NCBI GenBank assembly: GCA_049519355.1
Contig: JBEKQV010000001.1
Span: forward strand, 220,491 to 284,490
Reading direction: 5' to 3'
DNA from: Candidatus Microgenomates bacterium
GTDB taxonomy: Bacteria > Patescibacteriota > Microgenomatia > UBA8517
DNA: 64,000 bases
Shown here: positions 13,574-64,000 of the stretch, in pieces
How the letters are laid out: each line of letters begins with the position of its first letter
How positions within the stretch are numbered: position 1 is the first letter of the stretch
Translations under genes and position numbers: made by a program
The notes under the pieces: model-generated
The model's input: only the letters and a program-made list of their open reading frames with translations
Told to the model about the DNA's origin: nothing
The model's database searches: none

Positions 13574-13575
13574 TA

Positions 13576-19744: not shown

Positions 19745-19747
19745 ATT

Positions 19748-24703: not shown

Positions 24704-24730
24704 ATTCAAAGGTATTGTAGCATAGGGAAA

Positions 24731-26476: not shown

Positions 26477-26494
26477 CCACAGTATAATAGTGGC

Positions 26495-27910: not shown

Positions 27911-27920
27911 AATACAAGCT

Positions 27921-29411: not shown

Positions 29412-30352
29412 AGAGATTTGTAGTACTCGATTGTTTTTTGAAGCCCTTCATCCAAACTCACTTTAGGTTCCCAGTCCAAAACTTTTTTGGCTTTTGAAAT
29501 ATCGGGCTGTCTCCTCATTGGATCGTCTTTCCTAAAAGTTCCCATATATTTTATTTCCGATTTTGAACCAGTCAATTTAATAATTTTTTCAGCTAAATAT
29601 TTTATTGTGTATTCATCTGAATTTCCCAAATTAAATATTTCTCCTTTTGTATTATCCGAAAACATTGCTGCACATATCCCCGTGATCATATCTGATATGT
29701 AGCAAAAAGATCTCGTTTGAGTTCCGTCCCCGTCAATGTTGATGGAATTATCCGCTAATGATTCGTTTATGAAATTACTTACCACACGCCCGTCGTCTTT
29801 CTTCATCCTGGGGCCATATGTATTAAAAATTCTGATTACCCTTGCATCGACTCCGTACTTGTGCAAATAAACATAAGTTGCGGCCTCGGCGAATCTTTTA
29901 CTTTCGTCATAACAACTCCTGGGCCCGAAAGTATTCACATTTCCGTAATACGACTCTTTTTGAGGATGCTCCAAGGGATCTCCATATATTTCCGAAGTTG
30001 AGGCAATAAGTATTTTAGCTCCGATTTTCTTTGCCAATTTAAGCATCTCAATTGTTCCCATAGAATTGGTTAAAAGTGTTTCTTCCGAGTAATTTTGATA
30101 ATCAATAGGAGATGCGGGGGATGCAAGGTGAAATATATAATCAACTTGTTTACCCTTCAGTTTATCGAGCGGTTTCGTCACGTCCATATCAATAAACTCA
30201 AAGTTTGGGTTTTTCAAAAGCTCCCCAATATTCCCCTTGGAGCCCGTCAGAAGATTATCCAGACAAAGTACCTTGTAATCCTTTCCAATCAAATAGTCAC
30301 AAAGATTACTCCCGATGAATCCCGCCCCGCCGGTGACCAAAATACTTTGCAT
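29408..30352 (-). CDS. UDP-glucuronate decarboxylase / UDP-xylose synthase (NAD-dependent epimerase/dehydratase family)
   Basis: The segment ILVTGGAGFIGSNLCDYLIGKDYKVLCLDNLLTG, plus YDESKRFAE (YxxxK), resembles UXS/ArnA-decarboxylase-type SDR enzymes. Confidence 0.8.
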   Translation of the reverse strand: MQSILVTGGAGFIGSNLCDYLIGKDYKVLCLDNLLTGSKGNIGELLKNPNFEFIDMDVTKPLDKLKGKQVDYIFHLASPASPIDYQNYSEETLLTNSMGTIEMLKLAKKIGAKILIASTSEIYGDPLEHPQKESYYGNVNTFGPRSCYDESKRFAEAATYVYLHKYGVDARVIRIFNTYGPRMKKDDGRVVSNFINESLADNSINIDGDGTQTRSFCYISDMITGICAAMFSDNTKGEIFNLGNSDEYTIKYLAEKIIKLTGSKSEIKYMGTFRKDDPMRRQPDISKAKKVLDWEPKVSLDEGLQKTIEYYKSL

Positions 30353-30383
30353 ATGGCCAAATTATACCTTAAACTGATTTTAT

Positions 30384-31892
30384 ATGAAATCCTTTTGGCA
30401 GAAACTTCATATAATCTCGGACAAACTTCACCTTCCCTCCCTCCCCAACTGGCTTGTTGGGATTCTTGCTTTGGTTTTTATTCTCCGAATTCCGTCTTTT
30501 TTTGAACCATACTATTACGGCGATGAAATGGTTTATCTGACACTTGGACAGGGAATCCGACAAGGACTCACTCTTTATAAAAATATCTACGACAACAAAC
30601 CACCCCTCCTTTATATAACCGCAGCTGTCGCCGGAAATCTTTTCTGGTTTAAAGTGATTTTGGCTTTTTGGAATTTAGTTACGATTGTCATTTTTTATAA
30701 ACTTGCAAAAAAGCTGTTTGAGAATAACCCCAAAACACAAAAGCTCTCCACTTTACTTTTTGGTCTTTTAACAACTCTTCCTCTACTGGAAGGACAAACC
30801 GTTAACTCTGAACTTTTCATGATAGCTTTTACAATCCTCGCACTTTTGATACTTCTCGAAAAGAATCTAAGCTCCAAGAAGGTCTTTTTTGCAGGTATCC
30901 TTTTTGGACTCGGAACTCTTTTTAAAGTCCCCGCAGCATTTGATGCCCCTGTAATTGTTTTTTACTGGTTTATAACCCAAGGCTTTGGCAATTGGAAAAA
31001 AATAATTAAAGATTCAGTTATTCTCGGAGCCGGATTTATATTGCCGTTATTTTTAACATTTATTTGGTATTTTTTCAAAGGAGCGCTTCCGCAGTATATC
31101 AATGCAGCATTCCTGCAAAATGTCGGTTATTTGAGCAGTTTTAGACCGGGAGATATCCAAAAACCGTTCCTCATTAGAAATGCACCGCTTCTTATCCGCG
31201 GACTAATTGTTCTTGCCGGTTCGGCAGCCCTCTTTTTATTCCGAAAAAAGCTTTCAGGCAAATTCATTCTCATTACCCTCTGGACTCTCTTTGCTCTTTT
31301 TGCCATAGCACTTTCCGAAAGACCATACCCTCACTACTTTGTCCAGGCGGTGGCTCCGATCTCATTTCTTTTGGCCATGCTTTTTACCGAAAAAAATCTT
31401 GAGCAATCCCTTACGGTCATACCCCTGGCCATAACACTTTTCGTACCCGTTTATTACAAATTCTGGTATTACCCAACCGTCAGTTATTACACACGCTTTA
31501 TCAACTTTGCCATGCATAGCGAAACTAAGGAGCAGTATTTTACCCAATTCTCTCCCACGGTAAACAGGGACTATGAATTGGCTCAATTTTTGGTAATGTC
31601 GAGTACACCGGCCGACCGGGTATTTATGTGGGACCCGGACTCCGCAACAGTCTATGCGCTAAGCAAGCGTCTTCCCCCGATCAAATATGTTGTAAATTAC
31701 CATATATTGGATTATTCAACGACGGCCCAGGAAGCAAAAAATATTGCGTTGAACCCTCCAAAATTCATTATACTGACTGACGGTAACCCCTACCCGGAAC
31801 TTACCCCACTGATAAAAGAAAGGTACGTCCTTGTTAACCGGATAGACGACGCCAGTGTTTATGCCAGGTTAGATTTTGCCCCAGCCAAGTAA
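30384..31892 (+). CDS. ArnT/PMT-family (GT39/GT83) membrane glycosyltransferase
   Basis: YYYGDEMVYLTLGQG...NKPPLLY is the signature loop-1 DE motif. 502 aa and polytopic. Confidence 0.65.
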   Translation: MKSFWQKLHIISDKLHLPSLPNWLVGILALVFILRIPSFFEPYYYGDEMVYLTLGQGIRQGLTLYKNIYDNKPPLLYITAAVAGNLFWFKVILAFWNLVTIVIFYKLAKKLFENNPKTQKLSTLLFGLLTTLPLLEGQTVNSELFMIAFTILALLILLEKNLSSKKVFFAGILFGLGTLFKVPAAFDAPVIVFYWFITQGFGNWKKIIKDSVILGAGFILPLFLTFIWYFFKGALPQYINAAFLQNVGYLSSFRPGDIQKPFLIRNAPLLIRGLIVLAGSAALFLFRKKLSGKFILITLWTLFALFAIALSERPYPHYFVQAVAPISFLLAMLFTEKNLEQSLTVIPLAITLFVPVYYKFWYYPTVSYYTRFINFAMHSETKEQYFTQFSPTVNRDYELAQFLVMSSTPADRVFMWDPDSATVYALSKRLPPIKYVVNYHILDYSTTAQEAKNIALNPPKFIILTDGNPYPELTPLIKERYVLVNRIDDASVYARLDFAPAK

Positions 31893-35409: not shown

Positions 35410-35415
35410 GTGCCT

Positions 35416-36096
35416 ATGAAAAAAATCAGCCTTGAACTACCTGTATACCGCTTACAGTTTGATATGAAACTGGTCAAAAGGCGGAAGCCTCTCTTGGATA
35501 AAACTCTTGTCCCCACCCGATCAGTTGTAAACAAAAAATACAGAAGCGGGACCTTTACGGGGAGACTTGTCAGGTACTTTGCAGACCACAAAAGCATAAG
35601 GAAGATCTTTGCTTCCAGCTTTGCCGTTCTTGCGATATCTGCAAGTTTTATTCCCCAAACCTCGAGCGTACGTGCACAAAGTGACGATGCTATTATTCAA
35701 ACCCAAACCAACCTTGTAACCGAAACGAGCATGAAATACCCAGTTGAGCCCGTACTTATTAACCAGAACTACAGCTTCCTTCATCCAGCCATAGATTTTG
35801 GAGGAGAACTGGGAGAATCTATTAAACCTGTCATGGCCGGAATTGTTACTTATGCCGGCTGGGACTATTCCGGATACGGAAACTTGGTGGTAATTGGCTC
35901 AAAAACCGCCGATGACACTTATGAAATATACTACGCTCATCTTTCAAAGATAGAGGTCAAAACCGGACAAACAATTGATGTAAATACCGAAATCGGTAAA
36001 TTGGGAGAAACGGGTCATGCCACGGGTCCTCACCTTCACCTAGAAATCTACCAAAACGGAGTTCACCTTAATCCCCTAACTGTCTTGTCCCAATAA
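35416..36096 (+). CDS. M23-family (LytM-type) metallopeptidase
   Basis: An N-terminal signal/TM region, then HPAIDFGG and GHATGPHLHLE, which are the HxxxD and HxH zinc-binding motifs of M23 peptidases. Confidence 0.75.
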   Translation: MKKISLELPVYRLQFDMKLVKRRKPLLDKTLVPTRSVVNKKYRSGTFTGRLVRYFADHKSIRKIFASSFAVLAISASFIPQTSSVRAQSDDAIIQTQTNLVTETSMKYPVEPVLINQNYSFLHPAIDFGGELGESIKPVMAGIVTYAGWDYSGYGNLVVIGSKTADDTYEIYYAHLSKIEVKTGQTIDVNTEIGKLGETGHATGPHLHLEIYQNGVHLNPLTVLSQ

Positions 36097-40877: not shown

Positions 40878-42686
40878 ATGGTATCATATGCGGGGAATAT
40901 GGCAAAGCAACATAATCTCAAGCGTACAAAGAAAGTTTTCCGCCAAGTAAGTAAAATAAAGTTCTCGCGACTCATTACACCGCTTCTTTTTGTTCTTGCA
41001 ATTATTCTGGGTTCATTTGCGTCATATCTCATCGCCTATTACGGAAAGATCTATCCCAATACAAAGATTGCCGGTTTGGATATTAGCGGAAGAAGCCCGA
41101 CCGATTCAATAACTTTACTAAACCAGTACATAGTTCCTCCCGAAGAATTAACACTATATTACCAAGGCCATCTTTATAATATAAAGACTAATGATATTGA
41201 CTTTTCCTACGATTTCGCCGTCTCAGCCGAGACGGCTTATGAATATACCCGGACTGGGTTTATCTTAAAAGATCTCGTCAACCGTCTCGATATCATTGTC
41301 CACCCCAAAGATTTTCCCCTGGTGACAAATATCAATAATGATAAATTAAATAAAATTCTCTCTTCCATTTCAGGACAGATTTCTGTCAAACCAGTCAACC
41401 CGACAATTAATCTTGTCGACGGCAAGATAATTATTAACAAAGGGTCTCCCGGCATAGAAGTTAATCAGGAAGCCCTAACCGCGTTGATCGAAAAAAACCT
41501 GGCAACGGCTAAAACGGCAGAAATAGAAATTCCCGTAAGTATAACCGACAATACACTAAGTCAAACCGAGGCGGATTCCCTTCAGTCACGCGCGGCAAAA
41601 TATCTCGGCAAAAACATTCAAATGAAGTTTGAGTACAACACATTAGTACTTAATGATAGCGATATACTCAAACTTCTGGATCCGGAATCCGGATACAACG
41701 AGCAAGCTATTACGGATTTTATTCAAAAAACTGCAACTTCCGTTGATCGGAATCCTGTAAATCCAAAGTTTGTTTTTACCGGCGGAAAAGTAACCGAATT
41801 TCAGCCGGCCCTGGACGGGATCAAAACCGACCAAGAAAGTTTTAAAAACCAACTTACCGCTTCACTCGACAAACTCGAATCCACCGCAGATTTGTCCGAA
41901 ACTTTCGACATTCCTGTTGCTAAAAACCTACCCGAAGTTTCAACTGATGAAGTGAACAATCTTGGTATTAAGGAGCTTATCGGTAGAGGCGTTTCGACTT
42001 ATTTCCATTCGGCCGACTCCCGCGTCCACAACGTCGTCCTTGCTGCCTCCAGAATAAACGGCACATTGGTTAAACCTGGCGACACTTTTTCTTTTAATAC
42101 TACACTCGGTGACGTTTCTGCCTTTACAGGATACCAGCAAGCTTACATTATTTCTGAAGGAAGAACGGTTCTCGGTGACGGAGGAGGTGTTTGCCAGGTT
42201 TCTACCACTCTTTTCAGAGCAATCTTAAATGCCGGTCTCCCTGTAATCGAAAGGACAGCACACGCGTACAGAGTTGGTTACTACGAGCAGGATTCGCCCC
42301 CGGGATTCGACGCAACTGTTTACGGGCCTGAGCCGGACCTGAAGTTCAAAAACGATACTCCGGCATACATACTAATAGAGGCCCAGGACGATCCGAAAAA
42401 CTACTCTCTTACCTTTGAACTTTACGGCACCAGTGACGGAAGAGTCGCAAATACCTCTAAACCTGTTGTTTCCAATATTACCCCTGCTCCCCCAGCCTTA
42501 TATCAAGATGACCCAACGCTACCGGCAGGAACAATTAAACAAACCGATTTTGCGGCATCCGGTGCAAAAGTTGTATTTAATTATTCGGTAACAAGAGACG
42601 GAAAACAAATTTATCAAAAAACCTTTGTCAGTAATTATCAACCCTGGCAGGCGGTTTATTTACGAGGAACAGGGCCAGCAATTTAG
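40878..42686 (+). CDS. VanW-family protein (peptidoglycan-binding plus VanW domain)
   Basis: An N-terminal TM helix and a C-terminal VanW core (GRGVSTYFHS...GGGVCQVSTTLFRAILNAGLPVIERTAHAYRVGYY). Confidence 0.7.
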   Translation: MVSYAGNMAKQHNLKRTKKVFRQVSKIKFSRLITPLLFVLAIILGSFASYLIAYYGKIYPNTKIAGLDISGRSPTDSITLLNQYIVPPEELTLYYQGHLYNIKTNDIDFSYDFAVSAETAYEYTRTGFILKDLVNRLDIIVHPKDFPLVTNINNDKLNKILSSISGQISVKPVNPTINLVDGKIIINKGSPGIEVNQEALTALIEKNLATAKTAEIEIPVSITDNTLSQTEADSLQSRAAKYLGKNIQMKFEYNTLVLNDSDILKLLDPESGYNEQAITDFIQKTATSVDRNPVNPKFVFTGGKVTEFQPALDGIKTDQESFKNQLTASLDKLESTADLSETFDIPVAKNLPEVSTDEVNNLGIKELIGRGVSTYFHSADSRVHNVVLAASRINGTLVKPGDTFSFNTTLGDVSAFTGYQQAYIISEGRTVLGDGGGVCQVSTTLFRAILNAGLPVIERTAHAYRVGYYEQDSPPGFDATVYGPEPDLKFKNDTPAYILIEAQDDPKNYSLTFELYGTSDGRVANTSKPVVSNITPAPPALYQDDPTLPAGTIKQTDFAASGAKVVFNYSVTRDGKQIYQKTFVSNYQPWQAVYLRGTGPAI

Positions 42687-48393: not shown

Positions 48394-51027
48394 TTACCAG
48401 GAAAAACTTGAGAACAAATCCTGGGTCAAGGTTGTATTATAAAGGTAACTGCCGTCCTGGGTCAAGCTAAACCTCGGGTCTGTGTTTGAAGTAACACCAG
48501 GTAGCTTGATATTTAGTGTAACAGGGACGTCCCCAACACCCGCCTGTTTCCGAAGATACAAACCGTATGAGGTTACAGGAGAGTTCGCTTGTAACTGCGA
48601 TTTCCACTCAAAGGCGATGCTTTTTTCGTCGCCTTCCAAAACCGTAACCCAAACACCAATTTCCTTTATACCGTTTTCCTCAGTGACATCCACAGGAAGA
48701 CTCTCCTGGTCTTGACCGGAAATACTTTCAGCGCCAATCGCGGTTGCGTCGTCGGGAACTATAACTCTTATATAGTCTTTGTAGATACCGGATGGACCAA
48801 ATCCCACATTTGCCGTGTTCTTAAGGTTTAACTCCAGGGTTCTGTCGATTTCATAAGAACCTACGTTCACGGAGAGAGTCATGCTTCTCTGAATAAAATA
48901 GTCCGCCTTATTCACCCCGAGATTGGCTTCAACTAACCCCGCCAGGTCGGCGTAGCATGTTTGTCCGCAAGACGGGGTGTTAACAGAGCCGTCCCACCCC
49001 AGTAAATTAAGAGCGTTCTGGGACTCGGTGTCGTGTAAAAATGCTTGCACATGCCGTCCTTCAAGTGCCGTATAAAACACCTGTAAAACCGACATCTTTT
49101 GTTGAGAATCTAATTTACCCAGTTCTCCCAAAAGAGTTTGAGAAAGTCCCGTCAAAAAACTTGCCTTCTGATGTGTTCCCGGAAAGAAATTGTCTTGAAC
49201 TTCGGCCTGTGTTTCTTCATAAAGATTGTCCGTGGAGATATCAAGGTCGTAGTCCGACAGAAAAACTGGACCCGTATATTTTAAGATTTCCTTTATTGGC
49301 TCCAGGTCGATGGCCACCACTCCGTCTACTTGTTTTCCTATCTCTTTATCTAAAAACCATTCCGCCCTTTGCGCTGATGTCGGAAAATCCGGATCCCAGT
49401 TTGAATCCCTCAACCACCAATTGGCCTCTCCAAGATAATTCTTAATAGGTGCGGGTGGTTCAACATGACCATTGAGTTGTCCGTCTGCAGAATATACATC
49501 GTTTACGGTTAAGTCAGATAGTCTGCCGCTGTCGAACGTAAGAAGACCGTACGAACCGATAAAACCACCCGTGGGTCTTAATTCCATATTGTTTTCAAAA
49601 AGCACTAAGTAAGTTTTGCTTTGGTTTTCACCCAGAATCTCCGGAACCCTACTTGCAAGGATCTTTCCCTGGGAAACAAGGTTTTTGTATTTTTCAAAAT
49701 CAACCCGTGATAAAACGTTCTTTGCCAAGACAACGTTTTCGGAAGCCGCTATTTGGGTTGTTTTTTGAAGAAGAAGAATGTTGTCGTAAAGATTTGACAG
49801 GTTAGTCCCCAAACTTAAAGAAACTGCCGTGGGGTCGTAGGCCTGGTCTCCCAACATATTATTAAAAAGCGATGTTGTGTTTCTAACAACAGGAACCGCG
49901 TTTTCGGCGGCTAATGATAAATCTTTGGAAAGACTGGCACCATAATCCGTTTCTTTATAAAGACGTCCGACAACCGGAATATAACTTAAAACCTTACTTT
50001 CTTCACCTCCTGTAACCACAATTGTCTCAGCGATTAAAATTGTATTCCTTGCAACATCGTCTTTGCCGGAAAGAAACTCTTTGTAAGCCACAAACGACAT
50101 GCCGGCAAAAATCGAAAGGGTAAGGAAGGGAAAAATTAAAACTAAAAGTAAAAGCAAAACTGCTGTTTTTATCCTTCTGGAAACCCTCACGTTAAACCTG
50201 TGTACCGGCATCTTTGACCTTTTCAAAATTTTTCCGGAATTAACATATTTGTGCCAATTCTGACTAAGCCACCCATACGTTTCCGATAATGAAAATGCTG
50301 GGTCACGGTTAAGCCGCTGTATCTCAATCCCCCTCGGCAGCACCCGGTTTTCCATAGATTTGTCAATCTTCATGGAAATTTCACCTACAAGTCTCTTATT
50401 CTTTTCAAAGAATGTGGTTTCCGACATATCGGGACCAATTAGAAGAAGTTCTTTGCCGTATGGCCCAAAAGAAAACAACCACTTAATTAACAACCTAACC
50501 GCGTCGGGAGCAAACACAGGATAAAATATCTCTCCGACTCCCAAGGTCAAACTCCTCTTACCAACAATCTCTGAAATACAAGTTGGTAAAAATAAATCAC
50601 TTTGCAGATCTAGTCTGGGTCCAAGCAAATCCCCCACATAAATTACGGCGGAGTTATCATTTATTTTGATTTTGGCGGCATTTTTGACGTCGTAAATTTC
50701 AAATGGAAAAAGAACTAATGTCTTTGCCCTCTGCAAATTTACCGATAAAGAAAATTTTTCGTATTCTTGGTAGGCATTAGCCTTATTCAAAAAACCTCCG
50801 CAAAAAATTGTGTAATCATAAATTTGTTCAGAGTTAAAATTTTTCCGTGAAGTTATCCCAAATCTGTTTTTCACCGGAAGGCGTGAGGTGTTTTCTTCCC
50901 AGCCCTCTGTGTCGTCAGATATAATATTTACCAAACAGTTTTTGGAAAGTAAATTTTCCAAAATATTCAACGCAAAGAAATTGGCATCGGAAAAAAGACA
51001 GATAAATAGTTTACCCTCGGAGTTCAT
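48394..51027 (-). CDS. Large membrane-anchored DUF4012-like protein with an N-terminal cytoplasmic Rossmann-like domain
   Basis: 877 aa. One TM helix (TAVLLLLLVLIFPFLTLSIFAGM), then an extracellular region containing KTYLVLFENNMELRPTGGFIGSYGLLTF and NWWLRDSNWDPDFPTSAQ, which match my recollection of DUF4012 signature motifs. Confidence 0.45.
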   Translation of the reverse strand: MNSEGKLFICLFSDANFFALNILENLLSKNCLVNIISDDTEGWEENTSRLPVKNRFGITSRKNFNSEQIYDYTIFCGGFLNKANAYQEYEKFSLSVNLQRAKTLVLFPFEIYDVKNAAKIKINDNSAVIYVGDLLGPRLDLQSDLFLPTCISEIVGKRSLTLGVGEIFYPVFAPDAVRLLIKWLFSFGPYGKELLLIGPDMSETTFFEKNKRLVGEISMKIDKSMENRVLPRGIEIQRLNRDPAFSLSETYGWLSQNWHKYVNSGKILKRSKMPVHRFNVRVSRRIKTAVLLLLLVLIFPFLTLSIFAGMSFVAYKEFLSGKDDVARNTILIAETIVVTGGEESKVLSYIPVVGRLYKETDYGASLSKDLSLAAENAVPVVRNTTSLFNNMLGDQAYDPTAVSLSLGTNLSNLYDNILLLQKTTQIAASENVVLAKNVLSRVDFEKYKNLVSQGKILASRVPEILGENQSKTYLVLFENNMELRPTGGFIGSYGLLTFDSGRLSDLTVNDVYSADGQLNGHVEPPAPIKNYLGEANWWLRDSNWDPDFPTSAQRAEWFLDKEIGKQVDGVVAIDLEPIKEILKYTGPVFLSDYDLDISTDNLYEETQAEVQDNFFPGTHQKASFLTGLSQTLLGELGKLDSQQKMSVLQVFYTALEGRHVQAFLHDTESQNALNLLGWDGSVNTPSCGQTCYADLAGLVEANLGVNKADYFIQRSMTLSVNVGSYEIDRTLELNLKNTANVGFGPSGIYKDYIRVIVPDDATAIGAESISGQDQESLPVDVTEENGIKEIGVWVTVLEGDEKSIAFEWKSQLQANSPVTSYGLYLRKQAGVGDVPVTLNIKLPGVTSNTDPRFSLTQDGSYLYNTTLTQDLFSSFSW

Positions 51028-56287: not shown

Positions 56288-56485
56288 GGACAAGTTTCGC
56301 AAATCAGTATTTATCAACAACCGCTTGAATGTTATCCACAAAATTATTCACATTTATTCACGCTCGTTATGAACACGAAGATGTCCCGAAACCCAAGTTT
56401 AATTTACAATTGTTTTCAACTTATCAACACCGCCTACTACTAGAACTACTAGTTAATATATGATAAGAAGAGAAAGATAAAATCA
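56288..56485 (+). promoter_or_regulatory. Putative oriC: a DnaA-box cluster plus an AT-rich unwinding region in the dnaA-dnaN intergenic space
   Basis: TTATCCACA lies at 56332-56340. TTATCAACA lies at 56311-56319 and at 56421-56429. TTATTCACA lies at 56344-56352 and TTATTCACG at 56354-56362. An AT-rich stretch (ttaatatatgataagaagagaaagataaaatca) precedes dnaN. Confidence 0.6.
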
Positions 56486-57601
56486 ATGAAATTACAAATA
56501 CTTCAGGAGAATTTGGAAAAGGCCGTAAGCATAACATCCCGCTTTGCCAGTGTAAAAGCACAACTTCCCATTTTGGGGAACATTCTTCTTTCAACACAAA
56601 AAAGTAAAATCTACATTTCCTCAACCAATTTGGAGATTTCAGCGTCGGTTCAAGTTGGAGCAAAAATAGACGAGGAAGGAGAAATAAGTATTCCTTCAAA
56701 AGTTATTTCTGAGCTGGTCGCGAACTTGCCCAAAGAGACCATATCTCTAACAGCAGAAAAGGAACAACTGAAAATTTCCGCTTCAGGTTTTTCATCGACC
56801 ATTCTGGGAATGAACTCGTCGGATTTTCCGAAAGTGATCAACTCATTAAGTAAAGAAAAGGCAATAGTTTTTTCTCAGGAAGAGTTGTCTAAGGCTTTGG
56901 GACAGGTTGTTTTTGCCACATCGACCGACGAAACTAGGCCGATTTTGACCGGGGTTCTTTTTTTGTTTGGAAAAAATTCGATATCGCTTGTGGCAACCGA
57001 CGGTTTCAGACTTTCGCGCAAGACGTTTTTGGTTAAAGAGGTTAAAGGAAGTGAAAATAGTGTAGTTATTCCGAAGGGTGTTTTGGGTGAGCTTTTAAGA
57101 ACGGTTTCGGAAAACGGAGAGATTCTTTTCGGGTTACAGGAGAAAGAAAAACAAGTTGTATTCAGTCTTGGAGATGTTGTGTTAACCTCAAGGCTTTTGG
57201 AAGGGGAGTATCCTGATTTTGAGAAAATCATTCCTAAGTCTTCCAACATAAAAATTCTTTTAGATAAAGAGGAATTAACAAGAGCGGTTAAACTCGCCTC
57301 TATTTTTGCAAGAGAATCTGCAAACATAGTTAAATTACAAATACTAAAAGACGAAATTAAAGTTTCCGCCGAAAGTTCCTCTGCAGGAAGTCAGGAGACG
57401 AGCGTTGAGGCAAAGATAGAATCCTCACAAAAAGATTTTGAGATAGCCTTTAATTACAGATTTTTAGAAGACTTTTTGCATTCCGTTCAAGGAGAAGAAG
57501 TAAAAATGGAATTTTCTGGGGTTTCTTCTGCTGGAGTGTTTACGGACACCTCTGACAATTCTTATCTTCATTTAATAATGCCGGTAAAAGTTCAAAGCTG
57601 A
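56486..57601 (+). CDS. dnaN: DNA polymerase III beta subunit (sliding clamp)
   Basis: 371 aa. It begins MKLQILQENLEKAVSITSRF and shows a three-domain clamp pattern. It sits immediately downstream of dnaA. Confidence 0.9.
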   Translation: MKLQILQENLEKAVSITSRFASVKAQLPILGNILLSTQKSKIYISSTNLEISASVQVGAKIDEEGEISIPSKVISELVANLPKETISLTAEKEQLKISASGFSSTILGMNSSDFPKVINSLSKEKAIVFSQEELSKALGQVVFATSTDETRPILTGVLFLFGKNSISLVATDGFRLSRKTFLVKEVKGSENSVVIPKGVLGELLRTVSENGEILFGLQEKEKQVVFSLGDVVLTSRLLEGEYPDFEKIIPKSSNIKILLDKEELTRAVKLASIFARESANIVKLQILKDEIKVSAESSSAGSQETSVEAKIESSQKDFEIAFNYRFLEDFLHSVQGEEVKMEFSGVSSAGVFTDTSDNSYLHLIMPVKVQS

Positions 57602-58014
57602 TTTCCGTTTAAATCAACCACATAATATTTGACGGGTGCCGGAACGCCAATTGCTTGCAAATCGAAAACGGCACCGGCAACAATACTTTTTTCCTGGGTG
57701 GCTGTCGCAGGAACTTTTAACCGGATTCTGAAAGACTGAGTGTTAAAATCGTAGACGGCTTCGTAGTTTGTTGTTTCCAGAGGAAGTTTTGAATACCATG
57801 GGTATTGTGTATTAAGAATCGTTAGAGCCTGACCATACTTGAGATCGTCAGGTAGCGCCGTACTGGTAACCAGGGGTGGAGTTGTTTCTGGAGTGGGGGA
57901 TGGTGTTAGAGAAGCGACCGGCTTCGGTGTGGGGTGTTGCAAGACAACAACCACAAGAATGATGATACAAATTAATGAAACAGCACCGAGCACAATTATA
58001 AGTTTTTTCTTCAT
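57592..58014 (-). CDS. Small signal-anchored secreted protein (hypothetical), last gene of the T4SS-like operon (start taken at MKKKLIIV)
   Basis: An N-terminal TM/signal (LIIVLGAVSLICIIILVVVVL) then a PT-rich linker and a roughly 90-aa beta-rich domain. It overlaps the 3' end of dnaN convergently. Confidence 0.4.
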   Translation of the reverse strand: MKKKLIIVLGAVSLICIIILVVVVLQHPTPKPVASLTPSPTPETTPPLVTSTALPDDLKYGQALTILNTQYPWYSKLPLETTNYEAVYDFNTQSFRIRLKVPATATQEKSIVAGAVFDLQAIGVPAPVKYYVVDLNGNQL

Positions 58015-58033
58015 ATTTAATTCTACTCCCCCC

Positions 58034-60361
58034 TTAGGGTTTACCGAACCCAATTATACTAATTGTAAAAGATTGTCCACTTGAAGTTTTTAACGGAATT
58101 GTTTCAAAGTGCCCCGAAGAATCCACTGAATAAAACCACCCCGGTTTATAAGGGGCATTCGATTCATATGTGTGGATACCTGCTGAGGATGAATCGGCAA
58201 CGACGCCAACATGGGAGATGGCGTCTGGGCCGTCAAGAGAATTGTTAAAAAAAATAGTGTCGCCGGCGCAGACGTCGTCGTAGGTGGCGGCATTACCTGG
58301 AACCCATTTTCCAGGTTCATTTTTGAAATAGTTTACCATTGTGGGAAGAGGAAATGGAATGTTTTCGTTGATTGCCAGGTAAGATTTTGTTGCCATGTAA
58401 TTGCACCAAAACATGTCTTGGCTGCCTATTACCGCTTCTTGATTAGGCGGGTTTGGGTTTTGTGCAAAAAGAGTGGCGTTCCAGAGATCTGGGTAATCGG
58501 AAGAGTGGTTATAGTATAGGTCAAACCCCAAAGAAAGGTTGTTGGCGATAACTTTTGCGCGGTTGGCAATTTCTGGAGAACAGCCGGCGGCACCACTAAG
58601 AGTGCCCGAACTCGCAGGTACAACATAAGCCCCGGAATTGATGACAAAAAGGATTAGTGCAACGGCAATTGGTAGGGAGAGGAGGGTTATTACAACTGGT
58701 ACGACAATGGTGTCAAGGTAAACACCCGCAAGTCCGGTAAAAAACCTTCCTAAGCCGGAACTCAAACCGGAAAGAGATGACCTTAGTCCCGGAATGCCCT
58801 CATTCCAGACAGTGGCACCACCGTAACCGATCAACCCAGCTGCGGCTGCGGTTACAACAGACCCTCCTGTTAGGAAAAAAGCCGCTATGGCCGCAACGAA
58901 CGCGATAGCAATTTTCCCGTATTTGGCTAAAACATCTTTGACTTTGCCAAGAATTTTTACCCCGACGACTTCGACAAAAAAGGCCACGACCGGACCCACA
59001 ATCGGCGCGAGAGGGCCGAGGACCGGCACAAGAGCCGCCGTAATAGTTGCCGAAAGGCTAAGCCCCGTTGCCCCCTCCAAACCCTTTTCGGCTGCAACCT
59101 GGACCACTTTTTTAATGCCGAAATCTACTCCCGTTTTTTCTCCAAGCCAACCCAAAACAGGTGCTAAGCCTGAACCAACGGCAAGCTTTCCAAGAAAAGA
59201 TCCCCCAACAGCTTCCCAAGCCACAGGCGACCCAAGTCCGGCGATTGGCAAAAGGGCATGTACAGCCTCATTGCTAAAAATGCTTTTAAGAGCGCTGTCT
59301 GCCGGCAGTTTTGTGATTTCTTGACTTAAAAAGGAGCCAACCTTAGAGAGAATATGAGCACGGACATTTTCTATGCCGAAATCGGTTAAGCCTTCTAGAA
59401 AAGAACCCTGCCGGCTCATCAGAGAAGAAAAACCCCTTGCGATTAGACTAAAACCAAGCTTATTAAACCCTTCTTTGGGAGAATTCGAGAGACTGATATT
59501 GAAGTCCGGCAGAAACTCTTTTTGGAAGGAGTCGCCGAAAGCGGCGCGGGTAACGGCCTGACTTATTTCCTGTCTGGTTGCTCCCTGGTCAGACAAAACC
59601 TGAACCCAGTTTTTTAGAGTATCTGCTGTGGTTTTACTTTTGATCGCGGCGTCAACCTGTCCAGGGTTTGCAGACATTGCTGAAAACAAAGATGTTTGAA
59701 CAGAGAGAGAATCTTCCGTTTGTGCATTTTGAACAATGTCCAATGCAGCTTGTTTTGCCGCTGTGTCGGGAATGTTAGAAATTCTTGCCTTTATCTCCCC
59801 TTCGATTACCTCCGCCGTTCTGGGACCGTCAGCTTTGGCAAGTTGTCTTAACTTTTCTCCTTGCACGGTTTTAACATCGGAGGTTTTTTTGGCTTGGTAA
59901 TAAAGCCCTTCATCTTTTAAATTGGCTTCCGCCTGTTTTGCTCTTGCTGCCGCCTTCTCGTAAAGTTCCTGTTGTATTTTAATTACGCGTTTTACTTCCG
60001 CTCCCGAATTTTCAATTGTTTTTTGTTCTTCGGCTTTGCTTTTTGCCGCTTTAGTTTTGAGCTCCTCGAGGTTTTTTGGGACTGTTTGTTGACCTTCGTT
60101 GTTGACGGGTGCAATAAGTGCCCACGAATCAAGAATTTTATTGGCACTGATTACATCGTTAGTCCCAGTGATGTGTTTTATATAATCTCCGAATTCTTTT
60201 GGAGTTTTCCAACTTAATCCGAGACCTTTTACAGACCAGGGTTTCGGTTTTACGCCCTCATATCCGCTTCCAAGAATTTCTTTCGGGAAAAAATTAGTGG
60301 CGGCTTCCTGGAGATCGAAAACAATTTCTTTTGTATATCCGAAGGGTAATTCTTTTGCCAT
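58034..60361 (-). CDS. T4SS-associated fusion protein: N-terminal soluble Lys/Ala-rich domain, central VirB6/TrbL-like polytopic membrane domain, C-terminal CHAP (Cys/His amidohydrolase-peptidase) peptidoglycan hydrolase domain
   Basis: Residues 1-430 are hydrophilic. Residues 430-630 hold six to seven Gly/Ala-rich TM helices. The C-terminus reads QDMFWCNYMATKS...GDTIFF...DAISHVGVV, which places the Cys and His of a CHAP domain. The stop lies 1 nt before the VirB4 gene. Confidence 0.55.
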   Translation of the reverse strand: MAKELPFGYTKEIVFDLQEAATNFFPKEILGSGYEGVKPKPWSVKGLGLSWKTPKEFGDYIKHITGTNDVISANKILDSWALIAPVNNEGQQTVPKNLEELKTKAAKSKAEEQKTIENSGAEVKRVIKIQQELYEKAAARAKQAEANLKDEGLYYQAKKTSDVKTVQGEKLRQLAKADGPRTAEVIEGEIKARISNIPDTAAKQAALDIVQNAQTEDSLSVQTSLFSAMSANPGQVDAAIKSKTTADTLKNWVQVLSDQGATRQEISQAVTRAAFGDSFQKEFLPDFNISLSNSPKEGFNKLGFSLIARGFSSLMSRQGSFLEGLTDFGIENVRAHILSKVGSFLSQEITKLPADSALKSIFSNEAVHALLPIAGLGSPVAWEAVGGSFLGKLAVGSGLAPVLGWLGEKTGVDFGIKKVVQVAAEKGLEGATGLSLSATITAALVPVLGPLAPIVGPVVAFFVEVVGVKILGKVKDVLAKYGKIAIAFVAAIAAFFLTGGSVVTAAAAGLIGYGGATVWNEGIPGLRSSLSGLSSGLGRFFTGLAGVYLDTIVVPVVITLLSLPIAVALILFVINSGAYVVPASSGTLSGAAGCSPEIANRAKVIANNLSLGFDLYYNHSSDYPDLWNATLFAQNPNPPNQEAVIGSQDMFWCNYMATKSYLAINENIPFPLPTMVNYFKNEPGKWVPGNAATYDDVCAGDTIFFNNSLDGPDAISHVGVVADSSSAGIHTYESNAPYKPGWFYSVDSSGHFETIPLKTSSGQSFTISIIGFGKP

Positions 60362-60362
60362 A

Positions 60363-62198
60363 TTATTTTACTTGGTACGGCCCGGTGTTGATTTTTACAA
60401 CCTCCTGCGGTTTAGTTGTAATAAGTTTATTTTCTTCTTCAGACGCAACAACACGGATGGGGGCGTGGTGTGGTCCGGCAAAAAATATTCCCTCACCAAC
60501 ATTTGCTGCCAATAAGAGCTGTTTTTCTCCTTGGCTCAGATAAAAGACCTCACCAATCTTGTCTATTGCCGCGGGCGACTGTTTTAAAAGGACCTGCATG
60601 GCGCTGTTTGTAACGATGGCCTTTCCAATGTCCTGTCCGAGGAAGTCTTCGACGTCCTGCGTTATTGTAGTGAGTCCCAGGAAGTATTTACGGGCCCTCT
60701 TGACAACACTCCAAAGAAATTGCGCCGTGTCAGGGTATCTCATCATGTGCCAGGCCTCATCTACGATTAAAATTCTTTTCTTCATGTCCTTTTTGACGCG
60801 GGTCCAAATGTAATCGAGAATAATAAACATAGCAATTGGTCTAAGTGCGTCTTGCAGATCCTTGACTGAAAAGACGGTAAACGGATTTGTGATATTAATA
60901 TTTGTTTGTTTATCAAAAATTCCGATGAAACTTCCCCTGACGAACTTTTCAATTCTTGCCGAGAGATCAAGCGCTTCAGGAACTTCCATTCCGATTAAGG
61001 TTTTATAAAGATCTTCCATAAGCGGCGGTTCTTTTCCTTGGGTGTCGGGATCCATTGTTATTCCCTTGGCTCGGTAGGTCATGACAAGCGCTCTATCGAG
61101 GAGGGCCTCCTGTATTGGGGTAATTGCTCCCATAATAACTTTCATTAAAGAGTGAAGAGAAAGAATCTTCAGGCCCAACTGATTTTCGCCTTCCTCTCGG
61201 ATTTGAGAGAGATCAAACGGATTTATTTTGGCGGTCGAGTTGTAGGCGAAGGAAATATATTCACCTCCAACGGCAGTTGCAAGAGGTTGGTATTCGCTTT
61301 CGGGATCGATTACTATTACCTCAACGCCCGTCATAAGAGAGCGTAGTGCCTCAAGTTTTACGAAGTAGGATTTTCCGGCACCTGATGTTGCAAAAATTGT
61401 CATGTTTGCGTTTTCAAGGCTGAAGCGGTCGAAAATTATAAAGGATTCGTTTTGGGAATTAATACCGTATAAAACTCCTCGGTCGCTTGAAAGCTCGGTT
61501 GAAGTTAAAGGAAATGTCGTGGCAACGCTCGTTGTATCCATATTCCTTGTTATATTTAATCTGTCCATTCCGAAAGGCGCAGTCGAAAGAAACCCTGACT
61601 CCTGATCAAGAAGGGCGTGTTTACTTACAATGAGGAGAGACCCGAGTTGGGACTCTACCTGTTTGGTTATTTGGTTTAGCTCCTCGACCGAGTTGGCAGG
61701 AATTGTGATATAAAAGCTGAATTCGTAAAATCTTTCAATACCTTTTACAAGTTGTTCCTGAAGGGCCTGGGCATCTTCGAGTTTTGCTTGGGTTGTGGGG
61801 TCAACTATTTTTCCGCGTTCGATGTCGGTTGACATTTCCGCCTCCATCTCTGCAATTTTCCGTCTGAGGTCGTCAAGAACGCTTTTACCGTCAACAGGGT
61901 AAACATAAAAAGCAATATCAAGTGAAGTGTCCATGTTGATTACGGGCTCAAGCCACCCCGGGGCGACAAAACGCGGATATCCTCCTACAAAAATTGTTCG
62001 GAAATAAATGTCGTTAATTTTTATATAATCGAAATCCTCTTCTATTGATTGGGGAGCTATGGCGTCAAGCAGGTTCATTCCTTGCGAAATGGCAAGGTTG
62101 GGGTTGATTACCTTAGGCTTTACCTCATTTGGTTGAGTGGCCGGAGCGGGGTTTATTGTTTGAACCTGTTTTTGTTTTTTTGTAAATAAATTAGGCAT
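60363..62198 (-). CDS. VirB4/TraE/TrbE-family conjugal-transfer-type ATPase
   Basis: Walker A reads NMTIFATSGAGKSYFVKL and Walker B reads KRILIVDEAWHMM. CagE/TrbE/VirB4-type N-terminal motifs are also present (YFRTIFVGGYPRFVAPGWL). Confidence 0.8.
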   Translation of the reverse strand: MPNLFTKKQKQVQTINPAPATQPNEVKPKVINPNLAISQGMNLLDAIAPQSIEEDFDYIKINDIYFRTIFVGGYPRFVAPGWLEPVINMDTSLDIAFYVYPVDGKSVLDDLRRKIAEMEAEMSTDIERGKIVDPTTQAKLEDAQALQEQLVKGIERFYEFSFYITIPANSVEELNQITKQVESQLGSLLIVSKHALLDQESGFLSTAPFGMDRLNITRNMDTTSVATTFPLTSTELSSDRGVLYGINSQNESFIIFDRFSLENANMTIFATSGAGKSYFVKLEALRSLMTGVEVIVIDPESEYQPLATAVGGEYISFAYNSTAKINPFDLSQIREEGENQLGLKILSLHSLMKVIMGAITPIQEALLDRALVMTYRAKGITMDPDTQGKEPPLMEDLYKTLIGMEVPEALDLSARIEKFVRGSFIGIFDKQTNINITNPFTVFSVKDLQDALRPIAMFIILDYIWTRVKKDMKKRILIVDEAWHMMRYPDTAQFLWSVVKRARKYFLGLTTITQDVEDFLGQDIGKAIVTNSAMQVLLKQSPAAIDKIGEVFYLSQGEKQLLLAANVGEGIFFAGPHHAPIRVVASEEENKLITTKPQEVVKINTGPYQVK

Positions 62199-62886
62199 TT
62201 GTTTGTGCGTGTTCCAGTGTTACCTCGGGTTCTTTTTTGACCGCGGGATGTTCGGGATTATAGACGGACCAGTAAAGATCAATTAAGTCTGCTGTTCCAA
62301 GTTGTTTGAATTTAATTCCAAGGCGGCCCGCCTGGCGGATTAAATGGTCCCGTCTTGGGTAGAGAGTTATTTTTGCTTTTTTGATGACATACGACTTGGG
62401 GAATGGCAATGGACCTCCGCGTTTTGTAATAGCTGCGACGGATTTTCCTATTCCGAGCTCAAGAGGTGATAAATATAAAACAATGAAAAACCTTTTTCCT
62501 AAGACATTTTTCTTTTTAACGGATTCCGTAATAAAACCCCGGTAGTCTTGCATAAGCTTGGCCAAAAGGGGGTGGGTGATTTTTTTGGCCTGTTCATCCA
62601 GAAAATTTAAATATGAGCTTACATCCTTCCTTTGTGTCAGAACGACTATTTGAACGGAGAAGGTAAGTGAATTAATCATGGCGGCGTAGGCGGCAATTAC
62701 CGCTTCCTGCTCTTTTTCCGAAAGAAGACCAAAGTTAAGTGAGGTAGACTCCATTACAAGAGCTGCACCTCCGTCCCGGTAAACAACAACGTCATTTGTG
62801 ATATCGGCAATAGGAAGATGCTCCTCGGTTGTTGCGGTTAAGGGTTTGTCGGGAATATTTAAATACGGAATTTTAGGTAATGCCAT
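62191..62886 (-). CDS. Hypothetical 231-aa protein overlapping the VirB4 start by 8 nt; possibly the detached N-terminal domain of a Gram-positive-type VirB4
   Basis: VVVYRDGGAALVMESTSLNFGLLSEKEQEAVIAAYAAMINSLTFSVQIVVLTQRKD resembles, from memory, the N-terminal region of long (about 800-aa) VirB4 homologs. It has no TM segment. Confidence 0.4.
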   Translation of the reverse strand: MALPKIPYLNIPDKPLTATTEEHLPIADITNDVVVYRDGGAALVMESTSLNFGLLSEKEQEAVIAAYAAMINSLTFSVQIVVLTQRKDVSSYLNFLDEQAKKITHPLLAKLMQDYRGFITESVKKKNVLGKRFFIVLYLSPLELGIGKSVAAITKRGGPLPFPKSYVIKKAKITLYPRRDHLIRQAGRLGIKFKQLGTADLIDLYWSVYNPEHPAVKKEPEVTLEHAQTNA

Positions 62887-62889
62887 TTT

Positions 62890-63972
62890 TTAAAATTGTG
62901 CCGCCGGTTGAGCACTAAATTGATTTATCGCTTGAACGGCGTTCTCGGTTGCCATAACCCTTCTTCCTTGAACGAGAATCGGAGGAACGAGAACTCCTGT
63001 TGCGTCAAAACTTACCGGTGCAAATTGATATCCGTCTTTTTCGGTCACGATGTCATATCTTCCGCTATCAAGAGGGGTAACTGTAATGAAATGCCCAACC
63101 TTATTGCTTCGGAGGGCTCTAACCGGCCGCCCCGTCTCGTCTTTTATTTCCATTATTGCCCCCTCGACGATCTTTCTTTGTTCGTCGACCACCTGTCCGA
63201 CCACCACATTTGGAGTGGTGGGGGGATTTGGGGGAGCGGCGTCAACCGAAAACATTGCCTGTTTGGTTGAAATCATTTCTTCACCTGCAACAATTGGTGC
63301 AACCTGTTGGGCAGTCATTTGGATTGTGGGGGTTCCGGATTGGGGTTTTTCTTCGACGACAAGATGAGGAGCTCCGGGGGAGGGAATTCTAACGGGTTCC
63401 ATAACCGGGATTTGCAGGTTTTTCTCTGCCTGCTGGATGGGAATGTTTGCAACCGGAGCCGTCGGGGAGGTTTGGGATAAGGCCGGTGCACCCTTTCCTG
63501 CAAGTCCTGCGAAAATTCCGCTTAAGGTTGACAGAAAACCTTCCTCGGCGCCTTCAAGTTTGGCAAAGGAACCGGAGGGGTTTTTTGTCGTTGAAAGGTA
63601 TGTTTTAAGGGCGGCTTCCTGTTCGGGTGAAGCAGTAGTCGGAGCCGGGCCCACTTCTTCGTTTTGGAAAAACTTTGGAGGGGTGGTTGTTTTTTTCCAG
63701 AAAAATTCGGTAGGGGTATAAATTGCTTTAAAAAATGCAAAAATCCAGCGTTCAAGAGGTCTTTCTTCTAGGGGCATAAAAGCTAAGGCTACGCCAAGAA
63801 TTACGGAGATTATTGCCAGCGGCCATTTAACTATTCCGATAATAGGAGCTGCGTAGAAAATGATTCCGGCCAAAATTCCTCCGGCAAGCTGGAAGAATTG
63901 TTTAAGAGTCATATCTCCCACAAGTCGGAATTGATACGAAGAAATTTGTTGCGGAATAGGATGTTGTTCCAT
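62890..63972 (-). CDS. PrgI/VirB3-like two-TM protein extended by a Pro-rich linker and a C-terminal beta-sandwich (carboxypeptidase-regulatory-like) domain
   Basis: The N-terminus reads MEQHPIPQQISSYQFRLVGDMTLKQF and is followed by two TM helices. The C-terminus reads GQVVDEQRKIVEGAIMEIKDETGRPVRALRSNKVGHFITVTPLDSGRYDIVTEKDGYQF, a prealbumin-like pattern. Confidence 0.4.
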   Translation of the reverse strand: MEQHPIPQQISSYQFRLVGDMTLKQFFQLAGGILAGIIFYAAPIIGIVKWPLAIISVILGVALAFMPLEERPLERWIFAFFKAIYTPTEFFWKKTTTPPKFFQNEEVGPAPTTASPEQEAALKTYLSTTKNPSGSFAKLEGAEEGFLSTLSGIFAGLAGKGAPALSQTSPTAPVANIPIQQAEKNLQIPVMEPVRIPSPGAPHLVVEEKPQSGTPTIQMTAQQVAPIVAGEEMISTKQAMFSVDAAPPNPPTTPNVVVGQVVDEQRKIVEGAIMEIKDETGRPVRALRSNKVGHFITVTPLDSGRYDIVTEKDGYQFAPVSFDATGVLVPPILVQGRRVMATENAVQAINQFSAQPAAQF

Positions 63973-64000
63973 AGGACAGTAAAAGCAGTGAACTCTACTC

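Follow-up and report, generated by a model that had tools for sequence, protein, structure and literature searches.

Gene content of the locus

The stretch of DNA analysed here, referred to as the window, comprises 64,000 nt of contig JBEKQV010000001.1 from Candidatus Microgenomates bacterium (assembly GCA_049519355.1), and coordinates are window positions unless another contig is named. Close to its end, a cluster of five genes on the minus strand (57592-63972) encodes proteins related to those of type IV secretion systems (T4SSs): a VirB3/PrgI-like membrane protein, a TrsD-like protein, a VirB4 ATPase, a predicted cell-wall hydrolase and a small membrane-anchored protein (Table 1). An earlier note on this DNA had described five co-directional, closely packed genes, and all five open reading frames (ORFs) were recovered, at 360, 231, 611, 775 and 153 amino acids (aa). 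The packing is as tight as described, with junctions ranging from -8 to +19 nt. The PrgI-like gene and the 231-aa gene are separated by 3 nt, the 231-aa gene overlaps virB4 by 8 nt, and a single nucleotide separates virB4 from the 775-aa gene. The final junction depends on the start of the last gene, with a 20-nt overlap if translation begins at TTG 58053 and a 19-nt gap if it begins at ATG 58014. The TTG start given by mechanical ORF calling is probably wrong; the ATG start (140 aa) is better supported, being preceded by a strong Shine-Dalgarno sequence, GGGGGGAG, and 209 of 209 relatives align from that methionine.

The last gene runs 10 nt into the stop end of the convergent dnaN gene. The spacer between dnaA and dnaN contains four DnaA-box-like sites within 56311-56429 (at 56311, 56332, 56344 and 56421, the second of them perfect), and a further perfect box lies at 54900; across the window, 32 such matches were observed, compared with 15 expected. 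With the end of the operon 10 nt inside dnaN and the boxes clustered in the spacer, the distance to the likely origin is about 1.1 kb. The cumulative GC-skew minimum, at about 54-56 kb, also supports the proposal that the operon adjoins both dnaN and the replication origin. A promoter and terminator scan and a repeat search gave nothing above chance, PADLOC returned only generic P-loop matches to VirB4, and a tRNA was the only match in an Rfam scan.

Table 1. Coordinates of the T4SS-like genes, their main domains and motifs, and the adjoining features; positions on Logan contig L001 are marked as such.
Feature	Position (nt)	Strand	Family, basis or remark
dnaA	54920-56287		
dnaA-dnaN spacer, probable oriC	56288-56485	n/a	DnaA-box cluster; context, not part of the machine
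dnaN	56486-57601	+	
Small type-specific hydrolase partner, 140 aa	57592-58014	-	ATG 58014; mechanical ORF from TTG 58053, 153 aa
PrgK/VirB1-like membrane-anchored cell-wall hydrolase (predicted), 775 aa	58034-60361	-	Position, motifs, sub-threshold CHAP
CHAP-like C-terminal domain of the 775-aa protein, aa 583-775	58037-58615	-	About 190 aa
Junction motif INSGAYVVP of the 775-aa protein, aa 574-582	58616-58642	-	End of last transmembrane helix
Hydrophobic transmembrane bundle of the 775-aa protein, aa ~430-573	58643-59074	-	
VirB4 ATPase, 611 aa, without its own N-terminal domain	60363-62198	-	NF045971
Walker B motif of VirB4	60750-60767	-	IVDEAW
Walker A motif of VirB4	61368-61385	-	SGAGKS
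TrsD/TraC-like protein, 231 aa	62191-62886	-	NF041427, PF26593
VirB3/PrgI-like membrane protein, 360 aa	62890-63972	-	PF12666
Beta-sandwich of the 360-aa protein, aa 257-316	63025-63204	-	
PrgI domain of the 360-aa protein, aa 5-87	63712-63960	-	Two helices
755-aa soluble protein	L001 6909-9176, ~0.8-3.1 kb past window position 64000	Opposite to cluster (L001 -)	No family match
VirB2-like pilin array, at least 8 tandem genes	L001 125-2671, 7-10 kb upstream		PF18895

VirB4, TrsD-like and PrgI-like proteins

The 611-aa protein scores 372.8 bits (E 3e-111; cutoff 325) against positions 181-735 of the NF045971 conju_CD1110 model. It also matches PF19044 (E 1e-27) and the solved monoderm VirB4 domain PDB 4AG5 (E 5.5e-45), and is 26% identical to residues 241-782 of pCF10 PrgJ (E 2e-43), and both Walker motifs are intact. 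The ATPase had been proposed to belong to the VirB4 family, and the hidden Markov model (HMM) searches gave no result that would place it elsewhere. On the basis of these family matches, it is assigned to the monoderm mating-pair formation type MPF-FATA, CD1110.

The 231-aa protein matches the NF041427 TrsD model with an E-value of 4.6e-6, below the family cutoff, and carries a precomputed Pfam label of PF26593 (TraC-like). It also matches positions 132-234 of NF045975 (VirB4_plasma) and positions 29-109 of NF045971, again below the cutoffs, and aligns weakly to residues 68-149 of PrgJ. These matches identify it as a predicted TrsD-like protein, a detached N-terminal domain of VirB4 encoded by its own gene. 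Since it maps to the N-terminal region of VirB4 and the ATPase to PrgJ residues 241-782, VirB4 appears to be split over two translationally coupled genes, as has been reported for pGO1 and most Patescibacteria. A scan of species-representative genomes detected 588 VirB4 relatives, and in the best 80 of these a TrsD-like gene lies upstream of virB4 in 74 loci and a PrgI gene is present in 71. In the nearest species representative, VirB4 is 91% and TrsD 86% identical, compared with 84% for DnaA and 79% for DnaN, a difference that indicates very strong purifying selection on the ATPase.

The first gene of the cluster had been described as PrgI/VirB3-like, and its product does reach the Pfam PrgI cutoff, by a narrow interval (27.3 bits; cutoff 27). 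The two-helix PrgI domain is followed by a linker rich in proline, alanine and threonine and then by a C-terminal beta-sandwich. A CarboxypepD_reg-like match to this C-terminus (E 1.7e-4) is below the cutoff, and similarity to the collagen-binding-type beta-sandwich 8BDW is weak (E 0.032). The N- and C-terminal parts are both preserved in 68-69 of the 71 related loci.

The predicted hydrolase and its small partner

The database record of the 775-aa protein is a hypothetical protein of a Candidatus Microgenomates metagenome-assembled genome (MAG), and the protein itself has no Pfam or NCBIfam match. It comprises a fast-evolving N-terminal region without a signal peptide (aa 1-429), a bundle of transmembrane (TM) helices, a junction motif and a CHAP-like domain containing Cys653, His717 and Glu733-x-Asn735. 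Homologues come closer to the CHAP family PF05257: the closest C-terminal homologue (P0002, 59% identical) matches at 3.6e-4 and an orthologue in locus L028 at 1.2e-4, with homologue scores of 21-24 bits against a cutoff of 26. In an alignment of four sequences, Cys653, His717 and Asn735 are invariant, and Glu733 is glutamate in three and aspartate in one. In hhalign, the cysteine and histidine motifs align with residues 765-841 of the pCF10 PrgK CHAP domain (probability 60%, E 8e-5). PDB sequence and profile searches with the whole protein and with its C-terminal family gave nothing significant, the family profile reaching a cell-wall hydrolase only at E 0.018, and an AlphaFold2 (AF2) model of the C-terminal domain, built from a three-sequence alignment, was unusable (pLDDT 39.7).

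The gene directly follows virB4, the position that prgK occupies in pCF10, and for this reason its product is better read as a predicted hydrolase of the VirB1/PrgK class than as VirB6. The earlier note had proposed a VirB6-like/CHAP fusion. The VirB6 half of that proposal did not hold, as neither the protein nor its 31 positional orthologues have a Pfam or NCBIfam match to TrbL/VirB6 (no direct comparison with PrgH was made), and the CHAP half stands at a sub-threshold level.

Direct homologue searches gave a single match for the whole protein, two for the C-terminal domain and one for a junction-region profile; low-complexity TM and Ala/Gly-rich words probably saturated two of these searches, and the C-terminal query had 11 candidates. 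Because so few matches were obtained, the analysis of the hydrolase family was built instead on positional orthologues from the 80 loci. The junction site has serine (or threonine) at -3 and alanine at -1, which fits the signal-peptidase I rule, and cleavage there to release the catalytic domain is possible. More distant orthologues have degenerate forms of the junction (STGAF, NSSAF, TTGAL), and in many orthologues a DUF11/DUF7507-like Ig domain is inserted after the junction motif, ahead of the catalytic domain. Two orthologues have a DnaJ domain (best E 5.5e-14); if it is N-terminal, as expected, the long N-terminal region would be cytoplasmic.

The 140-aa product of the last gene consists of an N-terminal membrane anchor, a linker rich in proline and threonine and an extracytoplasmic domain of about 85 aa with an alpha-beta-beta-alpha-beta arrangement, and this layout of TM helix, linker and domain is reproduced in a confident AF2 model (pLDDT 91.4). 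It had been described as a small secreted protein. It is indeed small, but appears to be membrane-anchored rather than free, since its 21-residue hydrophobic stretch is modelled as a TM helix and is followed, as judged by eye, by no signal-peptidase-type cleavage motif. PDB searches with the partner family gave nothing significant, and Foldseek matches were insignificant and of a ring-building-motif type (FliF RBM2 and T3SS ring proteins). A VirB8 identity was considered and rejected, as no NTF2-like or VirB8 structure is among the top fold matches, and hhalign of the partner family with pCF10 PrgL was negative.

The locus beyond the end of the window

The window ends 28 nt upstream of the PrgI-like gene. 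Over the final 3,329 bp of the window the sequence agrees at 100% identity with Logan contig L001, which continues for another 9,972 bp and encodes a 152-aa protein of unknown function, a 755-aa soluble protein, proteins of 554 and 828 aa, and at least eight pilin genes. The earlier note had likened the operon to the minimal T4SS-like machines of candidate phyla radiation (CPR) and Gram-positive lineages. The CPR and monoderm affinity is upheld, but with a locus of about 20 kb the system cannot be called minimal.

The 554-aa protein has 10-11 TM helices, and one of its 17 orthologues matches TrbL weakly (E 0.0015), the only TrbL signal in the locus. This polytopic protein, upstream and outside the window, is therefore the better VirB6 candidate. 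The 828-aa protein is secreted and lysozyme-like, with an SLT_3 match in two of 15 family members (E 1.4e-7). PDB searches with the 554-aa and 828-aa families found nothing significant. The pilins narrowly miss the cutoff of NF045849 (E 1e-9 to 1e-6), a family that represents the pilin-like protein Mbov_0395 of mycoplasma integrative and conjugative elements (ICEs). Taken together with the matches of VirB4 and the TrsD-like protein to the Mbov_0397 family, this suggests that some monoderm MPF-FATA systems have pilin-like subunits too, which bears on the origin of the Patescibacteria pilins. In relatives, SmpB, a ComF-like protein and other housekeeping genes lie beyond the pilin array, as judged by eye from N-terminal sequences.

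The 755-aa protein has neither a TM helix nor a signal peptide. A counterpart, 466-1443 aa in length, is located between the VirB6-candidate and PrgI genes in 27 related loci. Sequence similarity among these proteins is almost undetectable across species, even at 91% VirB4 identity, and an iterative HMM search among the large reverse-strand proteins found no family. This hypervariable protein is a candidate substrate or host-interaction factor.

Chromosomal position

The PrgI-TrsD-VirB4 genes adjoin dnaN/dnaA in 63 of the 80 best loci (Microgenomatia), and most of the exceptions are contig ends. The closest VirB4 relative, 91% identical, is from a Microgenomates MAG. The 80 relatives are titled Microgenomates, Woesebacteria or Patescibacteria, save for several dozen uncultured Gammaproteobacteria or Pseudomonadales, one Nevskiaceae, one Saccharibacteria, one WWE3 and a few listed simply as 'bacterium', which nevertheless have the same synteny. 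The titles 'uncultured Gammaproteobacteria/Pseudomonadales bacterium' stand on typical Microgenomatia loci (including L010, L014, L018, L019, L026 and L027) and look like placeholder or wrong taxonomy.

The operon had been claimed as core chromosome rather than plasmid or ICE, and this synteny among species-level relatives bears the claim out. The conserved position beside dnaN/dnaA, combined with conservation of VirB4 and TrsD above that of DnaA and DnaN, points to core chromosome and not to an island. It is very improbable, and largely refuted, that the cluster is part of an ordinary conjugative element, either an ICE or a plasmid that has integrated, with its relaxase, coupling protein and integrase genes beyond the stretch in view. 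In favour of such an element, the genes for VirB4, PrgI, TrsD and the hydrolase have homologues, in a like arrangement, among conjugation genes of the pCF10/pGO1 type, and the window does stop very close to the first gene. However, the 10 kb past the window end holds pilins, a lysozyme-like protein, a polytopic protein and two unknowns, and no VirD4, relaxase or integrase was detected there or, in a Pfam screen of 20 large ORFs, in the rest of the window (57 kb), so that the reported absence of these genes nearby now extends over 64 kb plus 10 kb. In phmmer searches, pCF10 PcfC (VirD4), PcfG (relaxase) and Int had no match in the window and 148 related loci (1.9 Mb), whereas PrgJ recovered 84 VirB4 genes from the same 1.9 Mb. 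The remaining 57 kb encodes housekeeping functions (DnaK/GrpE/HrcA and GroEL, both by eye, as well as MurJ, glycosyltransferases, UvrD/AddA-like helicases, RmuC, FemAB and M23), no tRNA or flanking repeats are present at the locus, and its GC content (0.452, compared with 0.416) is inside the normal range of the window. The cluster also has one fixed site, flanked by housekeeping genes, in 63 of 80 species, its VirB4 is more conserved than DnaA, and relaxases are rare in the phylum (103 of 3,035 genomes; PMC12102498).

Matched hydrolase-partner pairs

The two genes following virB4 are kept in position in about 30 related species, yet change very rapidly: in the genome with the 91% identical VirB4, identity of the 775-aa protein drops to 30%. 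In 16 of the 31 positional orthologues of the hydrolase, the last TM helix ends in an almost invariant junction, LFIINSGAY(I/V)VPP. The catalytic domains behind the junction include Peptidase_M23 (13 of the 31), CHAP (three by Pfam, about five by motif), HExxH metallopeptidase-like and NAGPA domains, and these types are interleaved among genomes with 81-91% VirB4 identity. A conserved N-terminal part and junction are thus followed by alternative, non-homologous enzyme domains.

The sequence families of the downstream partner correspond to the type of enzyme. Among 37 pairs with the same partner family, 35 have their catalytic-domain cluster in common, compared with a mean of 7.2 and a maximum of 25 in a permutation test (p<=1e-4). 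Several pairings are without exception, namely HExxH with S1 (9/9), L006-type CHAP with S5 (6/6), window-type CHAP with S4 (3/3) and M23 with S10 (13/13). The pairing is unrelated to VirB4 phylogeny. Mean VirB4 identity is 63.6% for pairs of loci with the same cassette and 64.9% for the rest. The nearest neighbour by VirB4 has a different partner family in 24 of 26 cases. The pairing is also independent of position. Where VirB4 directly abuts dnaN or dnaA, the hydrolase and partner are located upstream of PrgI with their pairings unchanged, and stand-alone hydrolase-partner pairs occur in tandem in two Daviesbacteria-like loci (L082 and L084).

A swap of whole blocks between conserved anchors (the INSGAY-coding DNA and dnaN) was considered as an explanation and rejected, because the same pairs recur upstream of PrgI and as stand-alone genes; the preservation of type-specific pairs at other positions excludes a simple replacement of blocks and speaks for a functional link between the two proteins. 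As far as can be judged from these sequences, hydrolase domain and partner are exchanged between close relatives as matched, type-specific pairs. The pattern resembles that of an effector-immunity module, a likeness that is genetic and architectural only. Tentatively, the last two genes may form a polymorphic, exchangeable effector/immunity module, in which T4SS effectors that breach the host wall with alternative peptidoglycan-cleaving domains (CHAP, M23, HExxH or glycosidase) would be matched to the peptidoglycan chemotype of the host and accompanied by a cognate immunity protein or inhibitor. As far as the literature was searched, the pairing has not been described and may be new.

Some loci contain additional genes of this kind after the main hydrolase, either two or three extra small anchored proteins or stand-alone pairs of different types (L078 13722-14635, L082 14478-15938, L084 14079-15432), in an arrangement reminiscent of orphan immunity gene arrays. 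The window itself also encodes two adjacent FemAB-family genes, an M23 peptidase and a VanW/PG_binding_4 protein (18800-20581, 35410-36096, 40878-42686). As FemAB proteins function in peptidoglycan cross-bridge formation, this set indicates that the organism makes and remodels its own peptidoglycan, which bears on the need for self-protection from T4SS-linked hydrolases.

Comparison with known systems

VirB4 has been reported in 2,417 of 3,035 Patescibacteria genomes as a clade nested in MPF-FATA, with TrsD as the most frequent associated component and VirB3 of the PrgI type (Quinonero-Coronel et al. 2025, PMC12102498). The same study describes VirB2 arrays, especially in Microgenomatia and Saccharimonadia, scarcely detected VirB6 and VirB8 in Microgenomatia, relaxases in few genomes (the count given above), and a position near dnaA/dnaN/rnpA/rpmH in Microgenomatia and Paceibacteria. 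In Saccharibacteria, the T4SS of S. epibionticum (SEML1_0006-0019) includes pilins without a relaxase or coupling protein and is essential for epibiotic growth (Wang et al. 2023, PMC10633639). The present locus agrees with these accounts in its MPF-FATA-derived monoderm VirB4, separate and adjacent TrsD and PrgI/VirB3 genes, pilin array, hydrolases beside virB4, position beside dnaA/dnaN and lack of a linked relaxase or type IV coupling protein (T4CP), and nothing essential differs. The system is the already published Patescibacteria T4SS, and the interpretation in the earlier note was correct though not new. The polymorphic hydrolase-partner pairing, the C-terminal beta-sandwich of VirB3 and the hypervariable soluble protein go beyond the published accounts, and were not described in the literature searched.

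Among monoderm conjugative systems, the pCF10 operon (prgH-prgI-prgJ(VirB4)-prgK(hydrolase)-prgL) has the same order of PrgI, VirB4, TM-anchored CHAP hydrolase and small bitopic protein, and, of the pGO1/pSK41 trs systems, pGO1 likewise has a separate TrsD-like N-terminal domain. However, the present locus is chromosomal and vertically inherited, lacks PcfC/VirD4, a relaxase and an adhesin, and includes a pilin array. In comparison with pCF10, its candidate VirB6 and small partner have no detectable similarity to PrgH and PrgL, and its hydrolase differs from PrgK in having a multi-TM anchor and a long N-terminal region. The T4SSs of mycoplasma ICEs (Mbov_0395, Mbov_0397) share with it pilins that match NF045849 and VirB4 and TrsD proteins that match NF045975, but the scores here are below the equivalog cutoffs, and the mycoplasma systems are located on ICEs and are conjugative.

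The H. pylori ComB and archaeal Ced systems resemble the locus in having VirB4 as the sole ATPase nearby, pilin-like proteins, a polytopic membrane protein and no relaxase. The similarity to both is at the generic level of VirB4 (CedB scores 54.5 bits and its cutoff is 700), ComB operates in a diderm and includes VirB7-10, and neither ComB nor Ced has polymorphic hydrolase-partner modules. Effector-immunity systems (Xanthomonas X-Tfe/X-Tfi, T6SS Tae/Tai and polymorphic toxins) share a variable peptidoglycan hydrolase behind a conserved junction and, immediately downstream, a small, co-varying, membrane-tethered extracytoplasmic protein, with tandem pairs in some genomes. They differ in that no VirD4-binding (XVIPCD) domain is present here and the enzyme is itself membrane-anchored.

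Function of the system

The cluster is, with high probability, the 3' module of a chromosomal, vertically inherited Patescibacteria-type T4SS (Microgenomatia, Woesebacteria-related), derived from MPF-FATA and no longer conjugative. Several points weigh against this. The placement of VirB4 in its clade was judged from family HMMs and relatives rather than a formal tree, and continuity past position 64000 was taken from a different assembly (L001). The screen for relaxase and integrase consisted of Pfam on 20 large ORFs and single-sequence phmmer, which could miss divergent or small proteins. A T4CP may be encoded elsewhere in the genome, as the 64 kb plus 10 kb were the region covered and VirD4 homologues are found in most Patescibacteria genomes, usually far from virB4 (PMC12102498). 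The VirB6 candidate was chosen by topology and one weak match, and hhalign of the 554-aa family with pCF10 PrgH was negative; no VirB8-like component was found, the small partner not being NTF2-like. The CHAP call is sub-threshold, and an outside location of the hydrolase C-terminus is assumed. Finally, essentiality and imaging come from classes other than Microgenomatia.

In the proposed mechanism, hexamers of VirB4, which the VirB3-like protein would hold at the membrane and the TrsD domain would complete, would drive the assembly of a pilin tube and of a membrane channel, the latter formed by the 554-aa polytopic protein. The lysozyme-like and CHAP-like enzymes would open the peptidoglycan for the structure, and the small anchored partner would restrain or guide its cognate hydrolase. 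By extension from cultivated relatives, the machine would work at the contact zone with a host bacterium and be needed for epibiotic growth. The role of the saccharibacterial T4SS has been stated to be unknown (2025 review, PMC12857230; 2024 perspective, PMC11665869), and T4SS-like tubes and uptake of host RNA have been described in a cultivated member (2026 preprint, bioRxiv 10.64898/2026.06.21.733656). Uptake of host macromolecules has a little less than an even chance of being the role of this machine, protein export into the host is a conceivable but weaker candidate, and some other role is rather unlikely. Import is weighted slightly above export because the combination of VirB4 as the only ATPase, pilins and no relaxase or nearby T4CP recalls ComB and Ced and because host-RNA uptake has been reported, while the polymorphic hydrolase-partner modules and the hypervariable soluble protein are reasons not to dismiss export.

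An effector translocator, which would export the hydrolase domain, the 755-aa protein or both into or onto the host and in which the small anchored protein would be the immunity factor of the producer, is a possibility, if a doubtful one. A polymorphic catalytic domain behind a conserved junction, with a type-specific partner, is the genetic signature of effector-immunity modules, as in the Xanthomonas X-T4SS (PMC10933484), the large protein without TM helix or signal peptide is hypervariable but conserved in position in 27 related loci, and export or effector delivery has been a subject of speculation (Wang 2023, PMC10633639; 2024 PNAS perspective, PMC11665869). However, neither a T4CP nor a recognisable secretion signal was detected, the hydrolase has its own membrane anchor and could reach the outside without a T4SS, and hydrolases of the VirB1/PrgK type are ordinary assembly factors in monoderm T4SSs. 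The co-variation could equally have a structural cause, with the small protein acting as a divergent VirB8-like or ring scaffold, or as a targeting or activating subunit, rather than an inhibitor; this too is doubtful. The small protein occupies the position of prgL (VirB8-like) in pCF10, and its confidently modelled domain has the topology of a ring-building motif. Against this stand the insignificance of all fold matches, the absence of VirB8/NTF2 structures from the top matches and the negative comparison with PrgL. Furthermore, a scaffold should track VirB4, whereas nearly all nearest VirB4 neighbours have a different partner family, and the tandem pairs of L082 and L084 stand alone.

Uptake of environmental DNA by a competence system like ComB or Ced, rather than by a machine for host contact, is improbable. 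The component list is the one shared with those systems, and the match to the CedB family is weak but present. In class ABY1, comF, recG and radA are found beside the locus (PMC12102498), and a gene judged by eye to be comF-like lies past the pilin array in relatives. However, all VirB4 proteins give weak CedB matches, and in S. epibionticum transformation requires comEC and type IV pili, with comEC dispensable and the T4SS essential (PMC12857230; PMC11665869), loss of comEC abolishing competence and leaving viability unaffected (PMC10633639; PMC12857230). The polymorphic wall hydrolases and the diversification of the pilins argue instead for contact with the envelope of another cell.

Other genes in the window

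Five membrane glycosyltransferase genes are located within 22 kb (10021-15063 and 25307-31892), three of them PMT_2/ArnT-like, one GT87 and one GT2, suggesting that the cell invests heavily in glycosylating its envelope. Genes for recombination and repair are clustered at 15983-18118, 20839-23706 and 23711-24757 and encode a UvrD-type helicase, an AddA-like helicase that includes a PD-(D/E)XK nuclease domain, and RmuC. An 877-aa protein (48394-51027) has DUF4012 as its sole match (E 1.7e-28).

Implications

The locus adds to the known cases of a system recognised as near-universal in Patescibacteria, essential in the one species open to genetics, and with export of effectors and import of host macromolecules as its candidate functions. 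Within this otherwise conserved locus, the exchanged hydrolase-partner pairs and the hypervariable soluble protein would be the places where selection by the host acts, and both are candidate determinants of host specificity that can be cloned. If the last two genes do form an effector/immunity module matched to the wall of the host, the hydrolase-partner pair would mark host range in the genomes of uncultivated Microgenomatia.

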